Source: Candidatus Parcubacteria bacterium (GTDB lineage: Bacteria; Patescibacteriota; Minisyncoccia; UBA6257; JAPLYJ01). From it: a DNA stretch of 50,699 nucleotides. Every line of letters begins with the position of its first letter. Position 1 is the stretch's first letter. The position numbers and the translations under genes are program-made. Shown here piece after piece: positions 13,930-21,314 of the stretch. Under the pieces are notes generated by a model that worked only from the letters and a program-made list of their open reading frames with translations, made no database searches and had not been told where the DNA came from. The stretch spans positions 1-50,699 of the forward strand of contig JAPLYJ010000046.1 of the NCBI GenBank assembly GCA_026395655.1, in the 5' to 3' direction.

Positions 13930-14006
13930 TGGTGGGCGTATCCCGGCTCGAACGGGAGGCCTTACGGATGTGAACCGTACGCTCTAACCAGCTGAGCTAT
14001 ACGCCC
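13930..14006 (-). tRNA. tRNA-Val (anticodon CAC), CCA encoded
   Basis: GGGCGTA acceptor pairs with TACGCCC. D-arm TAGCTCAGCTGGTTAGAGC. Anticodon stem TACGG/CCGTA with loop TTCACAT. T-arm TCCCG-TTCGAGC-CGGGA. 3' end ACCA. Confidence 0.9.
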
Positions 14007-14127: not shown

Positions 14128-15030
14128 ATGTTTTTCAAATTTAAAGTATCAAAATTAGCTAATTTGTATTTTTTTATTTCCAACCTTAGCGCTTGGTCTC
14201 CTTATACTTACAAAAAAGATTATAACAATTTTTGGATTGAAAAAACGGGTCCACTTACTAATCAAGAAATAATAGCTTTAACAGATTTTAAGGAATTACA
14301 TCTAAAATATCCCTATGGGCATTCATATCTGGGTAATTTATTCACAAATGAAAAAAATGATTTATCAAAAATTTCCCAAACATTACCTTTAATTGATCAA
14401 AAAATCCTTATACAAACTTTTGAATTATTAGAAACAAGATTTGAAAAAATTTGGAGTATTGAAGAGCCACTCCTAAAAGAGTGGAAAATATTATTAGAAA
14501 AATATTTTGCAGATTTAAATCTCAAATATATTTTTGAGATTTTAGAAATTCTATACGATGTTAAAATAGATTATTCTCAATCAATGGAAGTATTTATTTT
14601 ATTTTCAACTCCAGACAGAACTGGTGGAGAAGCAAGTAATGGTCCAAATAAATTAACATTAAAAATTTCTAGATATGATAAAAATAGAGTTTCTCACGCA
14701 ATAGGAATCATTCTACATGAAATCATTCACTTAATTTTTGAAAAAAAGACTTTTTTCCCAATGATATTTCAAAATGTGAGAGATATTGATAAACAAGTTC
14801 ATTTAATAAAAGAGACTGCCGCTTCTTCTTTGTTCCCTAAAGGAATACTCGGATATCTTTTCTTAAATAATCCCATAGCCACCCAACTTTTACCACAAAT
14901 AGATCAACAACAATCAAAACTATGCATAGAACTTATGCAAAAATATGTAGATAATAAATATAAGCTAGACAATAATTACATTAAACAAATAATTAAAATA
15001 TTATTAAAAAAATACCCCTCTGGTTTATAA
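14128..15030 (+). CDS. Hypothetical protein with a single HExxH zinc-metallopeptidase-type motif
   Basis: 300-aa ORF on the rare plus strand. HEIIH at nt 14716-14730. No other recognisable domain. Confidence 0.55.
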   Translation: MFFKFKVSKLANLYFFISNLSAWSPYTYKKDYNNFWIEKTGPLTNQEIIALTDFKELHLKYPYGHSYLGNLFTNEKNDLSKISQTLPLIDQKILIQTFELLETRFEKIWSIEEPLLKEWKILLEKYFADLNLKYIFEILEILYDVKIDYSQSMEVFILFSTPDRTGGEASNGPNKLTLKISRYDKNRVSHAIGIILHEIIHLIFEKKTFFPMIFQNVRDIDKQVHLIKETAASSLFPKGILGYLFLNNPIATQLLPQIDQQQSKLCIELMQKYVDNKYKLDNNYIKQIIKILLKKYPSGL

Positions 15031-15069: not shown

Positions 15070-15225
15070 TTAATTAGACCAAGGCAAATCCATGTCCGAC
15101 CAATCTCGACCATCATCCCATTCATCCCAGTTATCCCAATCTAAAGTAGATGAGACTTGATCATTGGCAGAGGCGCATTCATAACGAGCAATAGCACCTT
15201 CTAGAGCTGAACATATGGTAGGCAT
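15070..15225 (-). CDS. 51-aa candidate RiPP precursor peptide with a Trp/Asp-rich C-terminus
   Basis: ATG at 15223-15225 lies 1 nt after the rSAM stop (TAAAATG). AGGAGG lies about 8 nt upstream. Product: MPTICSALEGAIARYECASANDQVSSTLDWDNWDEWDDGRDWSDMDLPWSN. The 84-aa track ORF is an upstream read-through into the rSAM gene. Confidence 0.65.
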   Translation of the reverse strand: MPTICSALEGAIARYECASANDQVSSTLDWDNWDEWDDGRDWSDMDLPWSN

Positions 15226-15226
15226 T

Positions 15227-16312
15227 TTATTTACCTCCTTTCTTAATAGATTTAATCTTTTCACGTAGAAAACTAAAAATTTCTCTACGCGTTGCACAAT
15301 AATAATATTCTCCTGATAATCCACCTATACGATGTTGTGAACAACCGTTATGACACGCATTAAACCAAGAACATTTTAAACAACTAGTGGGATAATCGGT
15401 TATTGCTTTTTTATAATCGTAATGTTTATTTCTCCTAAAGATCTCTTTTATACTTTCCTTACCAATATCGCCAAGACGAAATTCTTCAGAACAAGAAAAT
15501 CTATCACATGGATACACATTGCCATTAAAATCCACGCAAAGATAGCTAGAACAAGTACCATTAAATATGCAAAGTTTTGCACGTTTACCTAATACCCCTG
15601 CAACAAAATTATCTATCTCGCGAATGCTTAAATTCTTATCATTTCTGGCTATCCATAATCCTATGAGTGTCTTTAAGAAATAAGTTAACTCTTGTGGTTC
15701 TAAATATTCAGCGGATAAAATATTGTTTTTTTCGTATATATCAAAAATAGGATTTATTCCCCAATTATTGATATTTAGATCATCTACAAAAAAATGAAAG
15801 TCTTTTTGTATACTTACCAAATTCTTTTTGCTTATCGTCTGAATAAAACCCAAAGGAACTTCGTGAGATCTAAGTGTCTTAATACCACGTATGGTATTAT
15901 TAAAAGATCCTTTGCCATTAGAATACTTTCTGAATTTATTATGTGTTTCTTCACAACCATCCAGGCTTACTCCTACCCTAAATTTATGACTTTTAAAAAA
16001 TTGTGCCCAATCATCATTTATGAGAGTCGCATTTGTCTGAATAGAATTTTTAATCACCATATTAGATCGATTGTATTTGTTTTGAAGTTTTATTATTTCT
16101 TCAAAAAAATCTAATCCAGCTAATAACGGTTCCCCTCCATGCCAAATAAATAATGCTGTTTTTTCTGGAAAATCTAACACATCTTTAATCAGTTTATCAA
16201 GTAAATTTAAACTCATAACTGCATCTATTGTCTGATCCGTTCCTCTATAAAAACAATAACTACATTTTAAATTACAAAAATTACCAACTATCTTAGCTAT
16301 TATAGTTACCAT
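15227..16312 (-). CDS. Radical SAM / SPASM-domain peptide-modifying enzyme (anSME-like architecture)
   Basis: CNLKCSYC (CX3CX2C) at nt 16253-16276. GGEPLL motif. C-terminal SPASM signature CX9GX4C (CSSYLCVDFNGNVYPC), then CX2CX5CX3C (CLKCSWFNACHNGC), then a distal Cys. Start placed at ATG 16310-16312, which is preceded by AAAGGAGGAAACAA. Confidence 0.88.
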   Translation of the reverse strand: MVTIIAKIVGNFCNLKCSYCFYRGTDQTIDAVMSLNLLDKLIKDVLDFPEKTALFIWHGGEPLLAGLDFFEEIIKLQNKYNRSNMVIKNSIQTNATLINDDWAQFFKSHKFRVGVSLDGCEETHNKFRKYSNGKGSFNNTIRGIKTLRSHEVPLGFIQTISKKNLVSIQKDFHFFVDDLNINNWGINPIFDIYEKNNILSAEYLEPQELTYFLKTLIGLWIARNDKNLSIREIDNFVAGVLGKRAKLCIFNGTCSSYLCVDFNGNVYPCDRFSCSEEFRLGDIGKESIKEIFRRNKHYDYKKAITDYPTSCLKCSWFNACHNGCSQHRIGGLSGEYYYCATRREIFSFLREKIKSIKKGGK

Positions 16313-16439
16313 TTGTTTCCTCCTTTTTGTGTGCTCCTTAAATATGCAAAACGACGGATATAAAGCCATCGTTAGTATTGTCAATGAGCTCCTGTATATT
16401 TGAAAAACTATTTTATTAACAGTCTCCCTATTTACTTAA

Positions 16440-16468
16440 ATTATAGCAATCTTAAACCATTCTGTCAA
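16440..16468 (-). promoter_or_regulatory. Consensus sigma70 promoter of the rSAM-peptide operon
   Basis: Minus strand TTGACA-17 nt-TATAAT (both hexamers perfect), about 120 nt upstream of the rSAM start. Confidence 0.6.
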
Positions 16469-16571: not shown

Positions 16572-16600
16572 AAATTAAAAATCCCGCTCTCGCGGGATTT
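16572..16600 (-). terminator. Rho-independent terminator after rplL
   Basis: Minus strand AAATCCCGC-GAGA-GCGGGATTT followed by a T-rich tract. Confidence 0.8.
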
Positions 16601-17675: not shown

Positions 17676-19496
17676 TTAACGTTTTTTGTCAATGGTTATG
17701 AATTTTCTAAAAATAGGGTCTTTTTCAGCGCTTTTGACCCTTGCTACGTATTTTCTGATATCTTTTATATCCATTTTAGGGTCAAGATATATATCTAAAA
17801 CTTCTTGAGCACATTTATTAAAAATTTTAAATCCTTTAGAAATATTTTGTATCTGCCAAAAACCTTTTTTAAAAACAATGATATTTTCTTTTAATAAATT
17901 GCGTATTAAAAAAGCACCTACATAATAATACTGGTCCCAGCTGCGAGCATTCTTACCAGACTCATTAAAAGTATAATTTAAAAGCGTACCTATCTTAGCT
18001 AAAAATTGATATTGAGGATTAAATAAATGTGGGTTGGCAGAAAGCAAAATTTTCATACCTACAGTTTCTGCTTTTAATTCATCTAATATTTCTCCCATTA
18101 GATTATCCTTGGAACCTAATCCTATTTTTTTTCTAATTATTAAATTACCATCAGAAGGTATAACCATATGCCCTAACTCATGTAAAGCTGTTTCTATTAA
18201 TGCAGCATTTTGATATGACACCGGTGATATTTTTTGATTAAAAAATTTTAATAATAATGGTCTTTCTTCGTGATTGCTCCAAGATTCGATTATATTATCA
18301 TGTAAAATAATTTGATCAGCATTTGATTCCCCTGGGGTAGGCCAATGTAAATTAGGACCAAAAGCGTAAGGTTGATAGTTAACAAAAATCTGAGGTATTT
18401 TATTGTCAAAATCATGTGTTAATGTATCAGAAATATTTTGAGCAATAGCTCTTAAAACTTTTAATTTTTTTTCTTTTTCAATCAAATTTTTAAATCTATA
18501 CCCTATCCTGAGTTCCACGTCTACCTTGTGCGCTTGGCTAGCTACCGAAGAGTTATTCTGAGATATCACCATTAAAGGGCATCTCTGATTTAAAGCTACG
18601 CCTTTTTGATTTAAATTTTGATATTTTTTATAAACATCTATTGGTTTTTTTGATTCACAACCGTAAGCTTCTGACATAGTAGTAAGATATGTTGGAAGCA
18701 AAGAATATGATTGTGGTAATTTTTTGCTATTAACCAATTTTTTTGCTTTCAAAGACAGTAAACGCATCTCTTTAATTAAATCAGGCCATTCTTGTAAAAA
18801 AATAGATTTATATGGCAAAACAATTATTTTCTTTTTTTTAATATCATATATGTCATATAAGTATTCTAAACCTAAAGATTCTGATAGGTTAGTAGGCAAA
18901 GAACCATTAATCTGGTCTGCTAATTTAATTTGTTTGAGATATGCAAAATCTATCTTATTTCCTAAACAACCAGATATCTCATTTAAAAAAACAATTTCTG
19001 CGCGTTTCATTTCCCATTTTTTAAAAATAGATTCTGGCATATATGTTAACCAAATGTCTAATAATTGGATATTCATTTGTTGACGCCAAGAGGATAACAT
19101 TAATAGAAAATGCCAAACCTCAGGTAAATCAAACCTTATCGATTCTAACAAACCTAAATGATTAAGTTCGTCTTTGCAATCATACTGTTCTACTAATTTG
19201 ATAACAACGGATTTGATTTTTTTCTTTTTCATCAATATCAGCCATTTCTTTTTTTCTTTTTCAAATTCAGGTTCTACGTTTTTTTGCCAATATAAATGTA
19301 TTGATTGTTTAACTAAAAAAAATAAATCTTCTGGTTTTTTAGCCAATGTCCATGTTTTTTCCACAACAGTTTGTTTAAAAAAATCTTTTTCTAAAAAACT
19401 TGTTTTTTTCTTAAAAACATTAAAATCAAACCAAGAATTTACCTGATATGTACTTACATATTGAAAATGATCCCCAAAATGATTTTTGTTTGCCAC
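17676..19496 (-). CDS. Hypothetical 606-aa protein with HELGH zinc-metallopeptidase motif and downstream ELKAE (possibly M49/DPP III-like)
   Basis: HELGH at nt 18168-18182. A second acidic motif DELKAETVG lies about 30 residues later. Apparent GTG start. Confidence 0.55.
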   Translation of the reverse strand: MANKNHFGDHFQYVSTYQVNSWFDFNVFKKKTSFLEKDFFKQTVVEKTWTLAKKPEDLFFLVKQSIHLYWQKNVEPEFEKEKKKWLILMKKKKIKSVVIKLVEQYDCKDELNHLGLLESIRFDLPEVWHFLLMLSSWRQQMNIQLLDIWLTYMPESIFKKWEMKRAEIVFLNEISGCLGNKIDFAYLKQIKLADQINGSLPTNLSESLGLEYLYDIYDIKKKKIIVLPYKSIFLQEWPDLIKEMRLLSLKAKKLVNSKKLPQSYSLLPTYLTTMSEAYGCESKKPIDVYKKYQNLNQKGVALNQRCPLMVISQNNSSVASQAHKVDVELRIGYRFKNLIEKEKKLKVLRAIAQNISDTLTHDFDNKIPQIFVNYQPYAFGPNLHWPTPGESNADQIILHDNIIESWSNHEERPLLLKFFNQKISPVSYQNAALIETALHELGHMVIPSDGNLIIRKKIGLGSKDNLMGEILDELKAETVGMKILLSANPHLFNPQYQFLAKIGTLLNYTFNESGKNARSWDQYYYVGAFLIRNLLKENIIVFKKGFWQIQNISKGFKIFNKCAQEVLDIYLDPKMDIKDIRKYVARVKSAEKDPIFRKFITIDKKR

Positions 19497-19692
19497 AATA
19501 TTTTAATATTACTAAACAAATCTATAATCTGTTTAAACTTATCTTAACAGGAATCTTTAAACTTGGAAAGTGTTGTTTACAGCACAGTTCTAAATTACAA
19601 CGATTCACAGATAAATATAAAATAATTTGCTTGCATCCCAGCAACTAGGCAATTTATTAAAAATCGGATATAATGAGGTTATAAAGATATCT

Positions 19693-20361
19693 ATGCTTAA
19701 CCAAAGATCAAAATATCTACAAATAGCTTTCAACCGTTCTCTTGATGAAGTAAAAGATATGATTGCAAGGCTTCCTGCTTCTGACAAGATAATTATTGAA
19801 GCAGGAACTCCTTTAATCAAAAGATACGGAAAAAGAGGTATAACGGCATTAAAAAATTGGTGGAGCGAGAAAATACGAAAACCTGGATATATTGTTGCCG
19901 ATTTAAAATGTATGGATAGGGGCTCGAGGGAAGTTGAAGCTGTGGCTGAAGCCGGTGCCTCTGCGGCCACTTGTTTAGGATTGGCACCAATAGAAACTAT
20001 CGATGAATTTATTAGAGAATGTGAGAAGGCAGGTATTGACTCAATGATTGATATGATGAATATAGAATTTTCTTTTGAAATTTTACAAAAATTGAAAAAA
20101 CTCCCTACTGTAATTGTTTTACATCGTGGTGTAGATGAAAACGAAAAAAACAGAGAAAAACAAATCCCATATGATCAAATCCACCGTATAAAAGGAACTT
20201 ATGGAAAAGTTTTAATATCTGTTGCTGGCGGGGAAACACCGCGTGATGTTATAAGAACTTTTTTTAATGATTCTGATATAGCGGTTATCTGGCGTCCTTT
20301 TTACGAAGCACCAACAAATACTGCTAATTTAGCACAAGAATTTTTAAAATTGGTAAAATAG
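19693..20361 (+). CDS. 3-hexulose-6-phosphate synthase-like protein (OMP decarboxylase suprafamily), paralog 1
   Basis: By eye it aligns along its length with HPS/KGPDC: YLQIAFN.., IIEAGTPLIK, VADLKCMD (DxKxxD), AGASAATCLG, SVAGG. Start placed at ATG 19693. The track ORF starts at 19627. Confidence 0.68.
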   Translation: MLNQRSKYLQIAFNRSLDEVKDMIARLPASDKIIIEAGTPLIKRYGKRGITALKNWWSEKIRKPGYIVADLKCMDRGSREVEAVAEAGASAATCLGLAPIETIDEFIRECEKAGIDSMIDMMNIEFSFEILQKLKKLPTVIVLHRGVDENEKNREKQIPYDQIHRIKGTYGKVLISVAGGETPRDVIRTFFNDSDIAVIWRPFYEAPTNTANLAQEFLKLVK

Positions 20362-20366
20362 AAATT

Positions 20367-21314
20367 ATGCAAATCCAAAATAATAAAAAAAATAATCTAA
20401 TTAGTTTAATATTTATTGCTCTTTTTATTGTATTCTGTATTAATCCGATTTTAGGTATAATTCTGGTAATTGTACTTATTATATCTTTTAGAATAAAATT
20501 TAAATTTTCAACTACCAATCTATCTAATTATCAACAAATAATAGCTAAATCTCGTAGTAATGTAACAGAAAATAACTTTAATATTGGCTCAGAAAATCTA
20601 ATATCAGACGAACAACCTGTTATACCAATTAAATTTCCCATCTTTACATCTAGTCCAACAAGACTAAAAAAACGAAAAAAATATCTTCACATAGCCCTTA
20701 ACAGCACTCTTGAAGAAGCTAGGGAGATTATTTCACAACTTCCGATTTCAGATAGAATTCTAATCGAAGCCGGAACGCCTTTAATAAAAATATATGGAAC
20801 AGATGTTATTTCGCAAATAAAAGGAATGACACCTGCTGGAACTTACATAGTAGCTGATAATAAATGTGCTGATTTAGCTACGCGCGAAGTAGAAATGATG
20901 GCTAATGCCGGTGCCAATGCCGCAACCTGTCTTGGAGTTGCCCCAATTGAAACTATTGATAGTTTTATTGAAGAATGTCAAAAATTCAATATTGATTCAA
21001 TAATTGATATGATGAATGTTGAAAGCGCTCTCTCGGTTTTGAAAAAATTAAAAAAACCCCCCAATGTAGTAATGTTACATAGAGGTGTTGATGAAAGCGA
21101 ATTTTCAAAAGAAAAACAAATCCCCTATTATCAAATAAAACAAATTAAGGGAAATTACGATATTTTAGTGGCTGTAGCTGGGGGCGATACCATAAGGGAA
21201 ATACAGCGGGCAACTTTTAATGACGCAGATATTGTTGTTGTTTGGAAAAATTTTTACCAACCTAGTGCAGAAACAGCTCAATTAGCTGAATCATTTTTAA
21301 AAGAAATCAAGTAA
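20367..21314 (+). CDS. Membrane-anchored 3-hexulose-6-phosphate synthase-like protein, paralog 2
   Basis: N-terminal roughly 45 aa are hydrophobic (LISLIFIALFIVFCINPILGIILVIVLIISF). A roughly 60-aa linker follows, then a domain closely matching paralog 1 (YLHIALN, LIEAGTPLIK, VADNKCAD, AVAGG). Confidence 0.68.
   Translation: MQIQNNKKNNLISLIFIALFIVFCINPILGIILVIVLIISFRIKFKFSTTNLSNYQQIIAKSRSNVTENNFNIGSENLISDEQPVIPIKFPIFTSSPTRLKKRKKYLHIALNSTLEEAREIISQLPISDRILIEAGTPLIKIYGTDVISQIKGMTPAGTYIVADNKCADLATREVEMMANAGANAATCLGVAPIETIDSFIEECQKFNIDSIIDMMNVESALSVLKKLKKPPNVVMLHRGVDESEFSKEKQIPYYQIKQIKGNYDILVAVAGGDTIREIQRATFNDADIVVVWKNFYQPSAETAQLAESFLKEIK

Follow-up and report, generated by a model that had tools for sequence, protein, structure and literature searches.

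The triceptides, one of the classes of RiPPs (peptides made on the ribosome and modified after translation), are defined by the pattern Omega1-X2-X3 (PMC11499958), and in the xenorceptides Trp-C6 is joined to a C-beta on WVN and WSK motifs (bioRxiv 10.1101/2024.12.16.628070). The triceptide enzymes (XyeB/XncB, GrrM/OscB, FxsB, YhhB, HtkB, HaaB and ChlB) are radical S-adenosylmethionine (rSAM) proteins of about 360-380 residues that carry a SPASM domain and lack a RiPP recognition element (RRE). Their genes stand beside a short precursor gene, the Omega1-X2-X3 motif is repeated in the C-terminal core of the precursor, and W-x-N and W-x-K rings are experimentally known. The same architecture is found in contig JAPLYJ010000046.1 of a Candidatus Parcubacteria bacterium (assembly GCA_026395655.1), a stretch of 50,699 nucleotides analysed here over its full length and referred to as the window, in which an rSAM/SPASM enzyme is followed by a 51-residue Trp-rich peptide and faced by a convergent gene for a HExxH-motif protein. 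The kind of system is a known one, an rSAM/SPASM RiPP, probably of the triceptide class, and we consider it an evenly balanced proposition, argued by analogy, that the three-gene cassette forms three-residue cyclophanes between Trp and the C-beta of Asp or Asn. In contrast to the described triceptide systems, position X3 is mainly acidic (Asp), the cores are strongly anionic, the leader carries a distinct AIxGALxR motif and the cassette is distributed among the Patescibacteria; unlike the XYE clusters, it lacks a Gly-Gly leader, a PCAT or HlyD transporter and an aspartic protease.

The enzyme and its coupled peptide

The features of the cassette are as follows.
16312..15227, minus strand: rSAM/SPASM enzyme of 361 residues, with AGGAGG 6 nt 5' of its ATG and its stop codon TAA at 15229..15227
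15239..15234, minus strand: ribosome-binding site AGGAGG of the peptide gene, within the last enzyme codons and 8 nt 5' of the peptide ATG
15225..15070, minus strand: candidate precursor peptide of 51 residues, translationally coupled to the enzyme (TAA-A-ATG)
15184..15207, minus strand: leader motif ALEGAIAR (family consensus A-I/L-x-G-A-L/I-x-R)
15073..15144, minus strand: core LDWDNWDEWDDGRDWSDMDLPWSN, with five W-x-(D/N/E) triads
14128..15030, plus strand: HExxH-motif protein of 300 residues, convergent to the enzyme and peptide genes and the third conserved gene of the cassette
14716..14730, plus strand: HEIIH motif within the HExxH protein
14812..14814, plus strand: codon of the invariant E229 of the HExxH protein

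At the junction of the first two genes (AAA GGA GGT AAA TAA A ATG) a single spacer base separates the enzyme stop codon from the peptide start codon (ATG 15225..15223), and the peptide (MPTICSALEGAIARYECASANDQVSSTLDWDNWDEWDDGRDWSDMDLPWSN) has five Trp, nine Asp or Glu and one Arg among its last 24 residues. The initial annotation had described this one-nucleotide spacing, a small open reading frame (ORF) with its own AGGAGG and an acidic, Trp-studded C-terminal half, all of which are confirmed from the sequence; it had also placed the peptide outside the named families, and indeed no Pfam or NCBIfam model matches the peptides and no literature description was found. The 361-residue length of the enzyme is also given by gene callers on identical or near-identical contigs, and its Pfam domains are Radical_SAM and SPASM. 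The SAM-cluster motif CX3CX2C (C13, C17 and C20) starts at residue 13 and therefore leaves no room for an N-terminal RRE, as had been claimed; the SPASM signature, likewise predicted to be complete, comprises eight auxiliary-cluster cysteines (C248, C254-x9-G264-x4-C269, C311-x2-C314-x5-C320-x3-C324 and C339), and the cysteines of both kinds are invariant across 32 family members. Neither an N-terminal nor a stand-alone RRE was found, the enzyme aligning end to end with the RRE-less anaerobic sulfatase-maturating enzymes (anSMEs) and with ChlB, and no extra gene recurring in the neighbourhood. The leader motif of the peptide, whose Arg (position R400 of the fused alignment) is invariant, is presumed to be the recognition element for this RRE-less enzyme.

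That the two genes belong together is indicated by their relatives. Homologs of the peptide occur on independent contigs at 98% (P0121) and 86% (P0122) identity, and in these relatives the order is always enzyme, peptide and convergent 300-residue ORF. When the window is compared with the 86% relative (L007), the ratio of nonsynonymous to synonymous change (pN/pS) is 0.19 for the peptide, 0.17 for the enzyme and 0.26 for the HExxH ORF; within the peptide, constraint is stronger on the Trp/Asp half than on the N-terminal half, with two nonsynonymous against four synonymous changes in the core. The small ORF is under purifying selection between close relatives. At greater distance, seven loci whose DNA was fetched via the enzyme alone (L009, L090, L092, L093, L175, L176 and L177; about 45-62% identity) all contain an ORF of 49-70 residues at or just after the enzyme stop codon, with the leader motif, often followed by RPxNDLP, and a Trp/acidic core, examples being GWDDQWGNWDDLGGGDPGWGD, NWPDWDNGPDFPNWEDIGG, WQQWGDWDNGHADS and DWDTNWDKWDD. 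A convergent ORF of about 299 residues, homologous to 14128..15030, is present in six of the seven. In a control set of 80 generic anSME-like loci (at most 35% identity, among the matches listed by a profile scan of genome contigs), by contrast, any Trp-rich ORF beside the enzyme was seen in one of 79 (L031).

The converse sample was assembled from the third gene: 80 metagenome loci were fetched with the HExxH protein as bait, of which 69 were distinct and 58 long enough to judge. About 38 of these 58 carry the canonical enzyme and/or peptide, most in convergent and four in codirectional arrangement; a sister rSAM enzyme with a lower score is encoded in at least four others, and five are ambiguous. 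The trio is thus present across convergent, codirectional and sister loci, and therefore survives changes of gene order and leader. In the sister subfamily (L139 1505..3100, L145 2751..4300, L157 2253..3597 and L159) the gene of the rSAM enzyme, which scores 215-350 bits against the clade hidden Markov model (HMM), lies immediately beside that of the HExxH protein; the precursor is encoded upstream of the enzyme and has a different leader (LPxPIQ...) and His/Tyr/Trp-x-Asp cores such as SSHDHVYDHYSDQPAYEDVHDHWSDSN.

The enzyme and the peptide are very probably a maturase and its substrate. The interpretation as an rSAM-RiPP system, advanced in the initial annotation from the window sequence, is strongly supported by the conserved pairing (all seven enzyme-first loci and most third-gene-first loci retain the peptide), the shared leader motif, the W-x-(D/N) cores and purifying selection. 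The view of a two-gene system held in part: enzyme and peptide do form a pair, but the cassette includes the third conserved gene at 14128..15030.

Predicted chemistry of the Trp-x-Asp/Asn triads

The composition of the cores bears directly on the reaction catalysed. In 30 distinct peptides, aligned and containing 107 Trp in their cores, Asp or Asn occupies position +2 from Trp in 70% of cases, a share that rises to 85% when Glu and Gln are counted as well; Asp and Asn together make up 30% of the core composition, and the median net charge is -5. At +1 the residue varies (D, G, E, S, P or Q), Asp being the commonest X2 residue (42%), and position +3 is again Trp in 43%, three being the commonest Trp-Trp spacing (44 of 77). 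Tyr, Phe or His replace Trp in some cores, with x-D retained, as in NYDDFVDFPD (L144) and HWDNYDDHVDFPD (L128). The five triads of the window peptide (W30-D-N, W33-D-E, W36-D-D, W42-S-D and W49-S-N) are the presumed cross-linking sites. This aromatic-x-(D/N) repeat matches Omega1-X2-X3 and thus supports a triceptide reading, according to which the leader would be bound directly by the RRE-less, anSME-like enzyme, and reductive cleavage of SAM would generate a 5'-deoxyadenosyl radical. The radical would abstract a beta-hydrogen from the position-3 Asp or Asn (sometimes Glu, Gln or Lys) of each W-x-(D/N) triad, and the C-beta radical so formed would attack the Trp two residues earlier (i-2) at its indole, re-aromatization yielding a three-residue cyclophane. 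Each triad would in this way acquire a triceptide-type cross-link between an sp2 and an sp3 carbon (Csp2-Csp3; -2 Da per ring), with up to five rings in the window peptide.

The enzyme itself is most similar to another family. Its NCBIfam ranking is headed by anSME TIGR03942 (297.5 bits, cut-off 349.45), followed by DynA (238.5, cut-off 450) and then by DarW (174/650 bits, score over cut-off), DarE (167/650), GrrM/OscB (147/425), PapB, AmcB (94/370) and YhhB (96/450); the scores for XyeB and FxsB are 165/310 and 131/445. The nearest Protein Data Bank (PDB) entry by sequence is anSMEcpe (4K36-39; 207 bits, 32% identity), the next being ChlB (66 bits). In structure the enzyme is equally close to both: its AlphaFold2 (AF2) model, with a predicted local distance difference test score (pLDDT) of 90.8, has template modelling (TM) scores of 0.85-0.87 with anSMEcpe and, for ChlB, which is a triceptide synthase (23-24% identity), of 0.85-0.86, PqqE being a distant fold match (TM 0.56). 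The ChlB structures contain the substrate leader region, and ChlB aligns with the enzyme over nearly its whole length with no separate RRE. A search with PADLOC returned generic rSAM-core similarity to viperins only (52 bits), and a reading of the enzyme as part of a defence system was rejected.

The anSMEs (anSMEcpe, AtsB; TIGR03942) are thus the closest family by sequence and structure, with the same three-cluster architecture, and one alternative would make the enzyme a conventional maturase of anaerobic sulfatases that happens to stand next to an unrelated or spurious small ORF. The anSME equivalog at the head of the NCBIfam list and the anSME-like fold are what this explanation can draw upon. 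It is nevertheless extremely improbable. The TIGR03942 cut-off is missed by all 32 clade members, the window enzyme scoring best among them, and identity within the clade is at least 40% (median 53%) against at most 34% to 24 sulfatase-linked anSMEs. The sulfatase motif C/S-x-P/A-x-R-x4-TG was sought in the window and in the neighbourhoods of the loci: it is absent from the 50.7-kb window and, outside the rSAM gene, from 91 related cassette loci, whereas 31 of the 80 control anSME-like loci have it nearby. Hits in 10 CPR (candidate phyla radiation) loci were discarded as false positives inside the rSAM gene itself (C-T-A-H/N-R-x-G-G-x-S-G). Conservation, purifying selection and translational coupling, moreover, all speak against a spurious small ORF. 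The enzyme does not, therefore, group with the sulfatase maturases, and no sulfatase motif accompanies it in the window; the initial annotation had named these two points together as a ground for refuting its interpretation.

A subtler alternative keeps the precursor-maturase pair and dispenses with the ring, the enzyme carrying out an anSME-like two-electron oxidation, an epimerization or a beta-oxidation of Asp, Asn or Ser, the last leading to formylglycine- or aminomalonate-type products. The anSME family provides both the best HMM and the best PDB match, and Y24 and D277 of anSMEcpe, active-site positions of which D277 is the catalytic Asp, are kept as Y22 and D270; given these two residues, oxidation of the anSME type could still occur. 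Over-oxidation of peptidyl Ser, with aminomalonate as the product, is reported as a side reaction of cyclophane-pathway rSAM enzymes (PMC12186529). It should be emphasized, however, that the three-cluster cysteines and Y22/D270 are common to cyclophane synthases too and do not discriminate in favour of a sulfatase maturase, and that full-length similarity to anSME is misleading for cyclophane synthases such as DarE, which are the most anSME-like in full-length sequence and yet perform different chemistry (PMC10288494). The peptides have no conserved Cys/Ser-x-Pro/Ala-x-Arg site, and oxidation alone would leave the association of an aromatic residue with Asp or Asn two residues on unexplained. 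The clade differs from the anSMEs, furthermore, in a set of invariant residues (H58, R271, R342, N187, N251 and N322), of which H58 stands at anSME Q64 and R271 at F278, beside D270 (the equivalent of D277), so flanking the anSME active-site positions; these changes fit an acidic substrate. The clade is always paired with a Trp-rich peptide and has no sulfatase partner in the loci compared. A modification that leaves the triads uncrosslinked is rather improbable.

The same pair might also form a different cross-link: a C-O-C ether like that of darobactin ring 1, a C-N link such as that between His and Tyr in dynobactin, a Trp-Trp bridge between adjacent triads (i to i+3), or a bond that reaches C-gamma or C-alpha of the partner residue instead of C-beta. 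The dynobactin and darobactin maturases are, like the enzyme considered here, anSME-like rSAM/SPASM proteins that act on Trp-containing cores, and the DynA, DarW and DarE models score 167-238 bits. DarE forms ether as well as C-C links as a single enzyme, and dynobactin also has a Trp-Asn ring formed by a Csp2-Csp3 link (PMC10288494); WprB joins Trp-C5 to Arg-C-gamma (PMC11851443). Trp at every third residue (the 44 of 77 spacings above) would suit Trp-Trp bridges equally well. Against this, the strongest positional constraint is on Asp or Asn at +2 and not on the next Trp, isolated triads (GWGD, NWED, PWSN) are common, the darobactin-type W-x-W spacing of two is absent from the spacing table, and the DarE and DynA cut-offs are unmet. 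The cassette also differs from the DarE and DynA systems in that its cores are not of the WNWSKSF or WN.N.HSYRF type, no DarBCD-type exporter accompanies it and its hosts are not Gram-negative Proteobacteria. Thus, we regard another type of cross-link as unlikely, if less so than no cross-link at all.

The convergent HExxH protein

An exhaustive HMMER profile search with the 300-residue protein recovered 513 representative clusters, 362 of them at E <= 1e-10 and all of about 290-350 residues; a word-indexed search had returned four relatives only. H197, E198, H201, E229, P237 and G239 are invariant in 55 family sequences. The AF2 model (pLDDT 94.8) consists of a small sheet (strands 152-179), a long helix (185-216) bearing H197-E198-x-x-H201 and a further helix (220-233) with E229, and the protein as modelled has a gluzincin layout, with the HExxH helix after the sheet and the Glu on the next helix. 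No Pfam or NCBIfam model is matched above its curated cut-off, and no significant fold match (Foldseek, library to April 2026) or profile match was found in the PDB; weak SprT-like matches occur in 21 of the 55 members, together with local astacin-like matches. In the proposed pathway this HExxH...E protein would act after the maturase, with the modified peptide as its substrate; its most likely role is that of a metallopeptidase for leader removal, the alternative being a ChlH-like tailoring enzyme acting on Asp or Asn.

The pairing of a cyclophane-forming rSAM enzyme with an HExxH protein has a precedent, which supports its occurrence here. ChlBH is a triceptide rSAM enzyme fused to an HExxH domain with a zincin-like fold, earlier annotated as a metallopeptidase, which proved to be a beta-hydroxylase that uses Fe(II) and 2-oxoglutarate and acts on Asp and His within pre-formed cyclophanes; backbone cleavage, oxidative or hydrolytic, is the reaction of related HExxH enzymes (PMC12636437). 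The cassette resembles ChlBH and FxsBH in coupling a cyclophane-type rSAM enzyme to an HExxH protein with a zincin-like core and in its Asp-containing aromatic motifs; it differs in that the HExxH protein is separate, convergent and 300 residues long, with no detectable relation to IPR026337/TIGR04267. It could be argued, then, that the third gene encodes not a leader peptidase but a tailoring enzyme that depends on Fe(II), in the manner of ChlH, PflC or BpmH. Such an enzyme would hydroxylate the beta position of Asp or Asn in or beside the rings or cleave the backbone oxidatively. The 2-oxoglutarate-dependent hydroxylation of Asp and His inside cyclophanes by the ChlBH domain, the abundance of Asp at X2 and of Asp and Asn, the commonest residues, at X3, and the possibility that H197, H201 and E229 form a 2-His-1-carboxylate site all speak for such a role. 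None of the 55 members, however, matches any NCBIfam HExxH-hydroxylase model (IPR026337/TIGR04267 type) at E <= 1, the PDB library offered no fold match, and HExxH with a Glu on the next helix is the classic gluzincin arrangement. Many Patescibacteria are anaerobic fermenters without a tricarboxylic acid cycle. In such cells a step that consumes O2 and 2-oxoglutarate would, on general grounds, sit awkwardly beside an O2-sensitive rSAM enzyme. A tailoring function for the third gene is accordingly a possibility that we hold to be a minority one, and leader removal is the role preferred here.

A further variant would place the product inside the cell, not as a secreted peptide of the antibiotic type but as a lineage-wide small molecule or cofactor comparable to pyrroloquinoline quinone (PQQ): the triads would be cross-linked and the units then excised or tailored by the HExxH enzyme, one precursor giving several copies of a compound derived from Trp and Asp or Asn. 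As proposed, the cassette would share with PqqA/PqqE/PqqF an rSAM/SPASM enzyme that forms a bond between an acidic side chain and an aromatic ring within a small peptide, a metalloprotease partner and the absence of an exporter. Such a route would explain why there is no exporter or immunity gene, why the genes sit in a housekeeping setting, why X2 is tolerant and why the cassette is retained in hundreds of minimal genomes. In contrast with the PQQ pathway, PqqD or another RRE, PqqB and PqqC are lacking, and the cores are variable and multi-motif where PqqA has a fixed E-x-x-x-Y. We judge this variant, for both the intracellular product and the multiple copies, to be quite improbable.

Returning to the triceptide-like product with Trp-to-C-beta rings, a number of observations tell against it and have contributed to the even balance in which we hold it. 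Its support derives from sequence, models and analogy. The anSME family remains the best HMM and the best PDB sequence match of the enzyme, its Tyr and Asp being invariant in the clade as Y22 and D270, and no curated NCBIfam cyclophane-synthase cut-off is reached by the enzyme or by any of the 32 clade members. X3 is not invariably Asp or Asn, and some family cores contain only two Trp. Apart from the weak SprT-like and astacin-like local similarity, no known peptidase family is matched by the HExxH protein, and in about 11 of the 58 judged third-gene-first loci it occurs with no enzyme or peptide nearby; the HExxH family is therefore not strictly tied to the system. Finally, no fourth gene recurs among the loci compared, whether for a transporter, an RRE protein or an immunity-like function, which is atypical of secreted RiPPs.

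Genes for NUDIX hydrolases were seen near some HExxH genes. In two loci (L175 4800..5258, with a 10-nt gap, and L177 4895..5392) the NUDIX gene is immediately upstream of the HExxH gene and codirectional with it, and in a third (L092 7759..8238) it is two genes away; in the window it is absent. It may be an accessory gene or a coincidence.

Genomic setting, distribution and significance

The remaining features around the cassette are these.
16468..16440, minus strand: sigma-70-type promoter (TTGACA-17 nt-TGnTATAAT), 12/12 to consensus with a TG extension, 128 nt 5' of the enzyme ATG
16600..16579, minus strand: rplL terminator, upstream of the cassette promoter
16313..16439, minus strand: 5' leader of the enzyme mRNA, 128 nt, with two predicted hairpins
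13930..14006, minus strand: tRNA-Val (anticodon CAC), between tyrS and the HExxH gene, the cassette boundary on the tyrS side

The window (32.5% G+C) surrounds the cassette with housekeeping genes: mraZ, mraW, a penicillin-binding protein and a Mur ligase, tyrS, rplJ and rplL, lepA, murJ and ribosomal protein genes. The cassette promoter lies directly after the rplL terminator, and the enzyme and peptide therefore form a separate transcription unit, which bears out the private operon of the initial annotation. The folding stability of the 128-nt leader slightly exceeds that of its shuffles (z = -2.2), and an Rfam scan of it gave no riboswitch or other family, the sole match being the neighbouring tRNA. 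Next to rplJ is an ORF of 606 residues (17676..19496, minus strand) with a HELGH motif at residue 439 and no match in Pfam, NCBIfam or PADLOC; it may be a second orphan metalloprotease-like protein of the same neighbourhood. Further on (19627..21314, plus strand) stand two adjoining paralogous genes of the orotidine-monophosphate (OMP)-decarboxylase/HUMPS family, whose products of 244 and 315 residues may be ribulose-monophosphate-type enzymes, of a kind often noted in CPR genomes.

A large part of bacterial diversity belongs to the Patescibacteria, or CPR, whose genomes are tiny. Reports usually credit them with a handful of biosynthetic gene clusters or with none, and in one survey the Patescibacteria metagenome-assembled genomes (MAGs) yielded none (PMC11613949). 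The expectation, voiced at the outset, that RiPP biosynthesis in a reduced, CPR-like genome would be unusual is thus borne out by such surveys, but not by the system itself: the relatives of the enzyme comprise a very large set at 43-50% identity and one at 62%, those with names being Parcubacteria, Pacebacteria, Wolfebacteria or "Patescibacteria group", and, judged by these matches, the enzyme clade is specific to the Patescibacteria and the system, with hundreds of clusters, is widespread in the CPR rather than a rarity there.

Several loci depart from the common plan. In L096 (193..5255) and L111, two complete paralogous cassettes, with a HExxH gene and convergent enzyme and peptide genes, stand in tandem on one contig and have different cores (RRWGDSWTKFPKE and DDQWDGEWTEWEDVNYP), which looks like the diversification typical of natural-product-like systems. 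More distant cassettes include one in a Saccharibacteria MAG (L035 3971..5533), with an enzyme of 33% identity, a basic 54-residue ORF ending PWDKGHWANRK and a fragmentary HExxH-family gene, and another (L085 3992..6578) with an enzyme, a 40-residue ORF ending SHENHPPFDNSDDHVP and a codirectional HExxH protein of 340 residues. On one Patescibacteria contig a second candidate RiPP unit (L090 756..3068) lies 1 kb upstream of the cassette and consists of a 38-residue ORF (MEEAIVKEEFESAEIKVHQENVSLKIGIHPVGTDDPPG), a 476-residue rSAM/SPASM protein whose long N-terminal extension may be an RRE, and a 220-residue ORF. Outside the CPR, the single positive control locus (L031 3540..5098, a Thermoleophilaceae MAG) has a 127-residue ORF with W-T-D, W-V-D, W-E-N and W-D-D directly upstream of an rSAM/SPASM gene whose best model is DarW (272 bits, cut-off 650), with no HExxH gene; it is probably another uncharacterized Trp-peptide system.

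Currently no paper was found that links the CPR or Patescibacteria to cyclophane or triceptide RiPPs or that describes the peptide, in a literature coverage that does not extend to the main triceptide landscape papers, and some cassette sequences may conceivably sit unremarked in a published similarity network. Five features appear to be undescribed: the clade to which the enzyme belongs, the motif in the leader, W-x-D/N cores of anionic character, a separate HExxH partner without a fold relative in the PDB, and the distribution across the Patescibacteria. An RRE and an adjacent ABC (ATP-binding cassette) transporter served as filters in two large rSAM-RiPP censuses (PMC10288494); the cassette lacks both, and may for that reason have been overlooked in such surveys.

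That a compact peptide-maturation cassette is kept in tiny genomes implies a function worth its cost, and for the product we infer host interaction, signalling, metal binding or antagonism as plausible roles. For RiPP enzymology, the system offers an anSME-like clade that probably acts on anionic Trp-x-Asp motifs, a new leader motif predicted to be read by an RRE-less enzyme, and a confidently modelled HExxH protein without a structural relative in the PDB. As three small, clonable genes, the cassette provides a concrete handle on the chemistry of the CPR.

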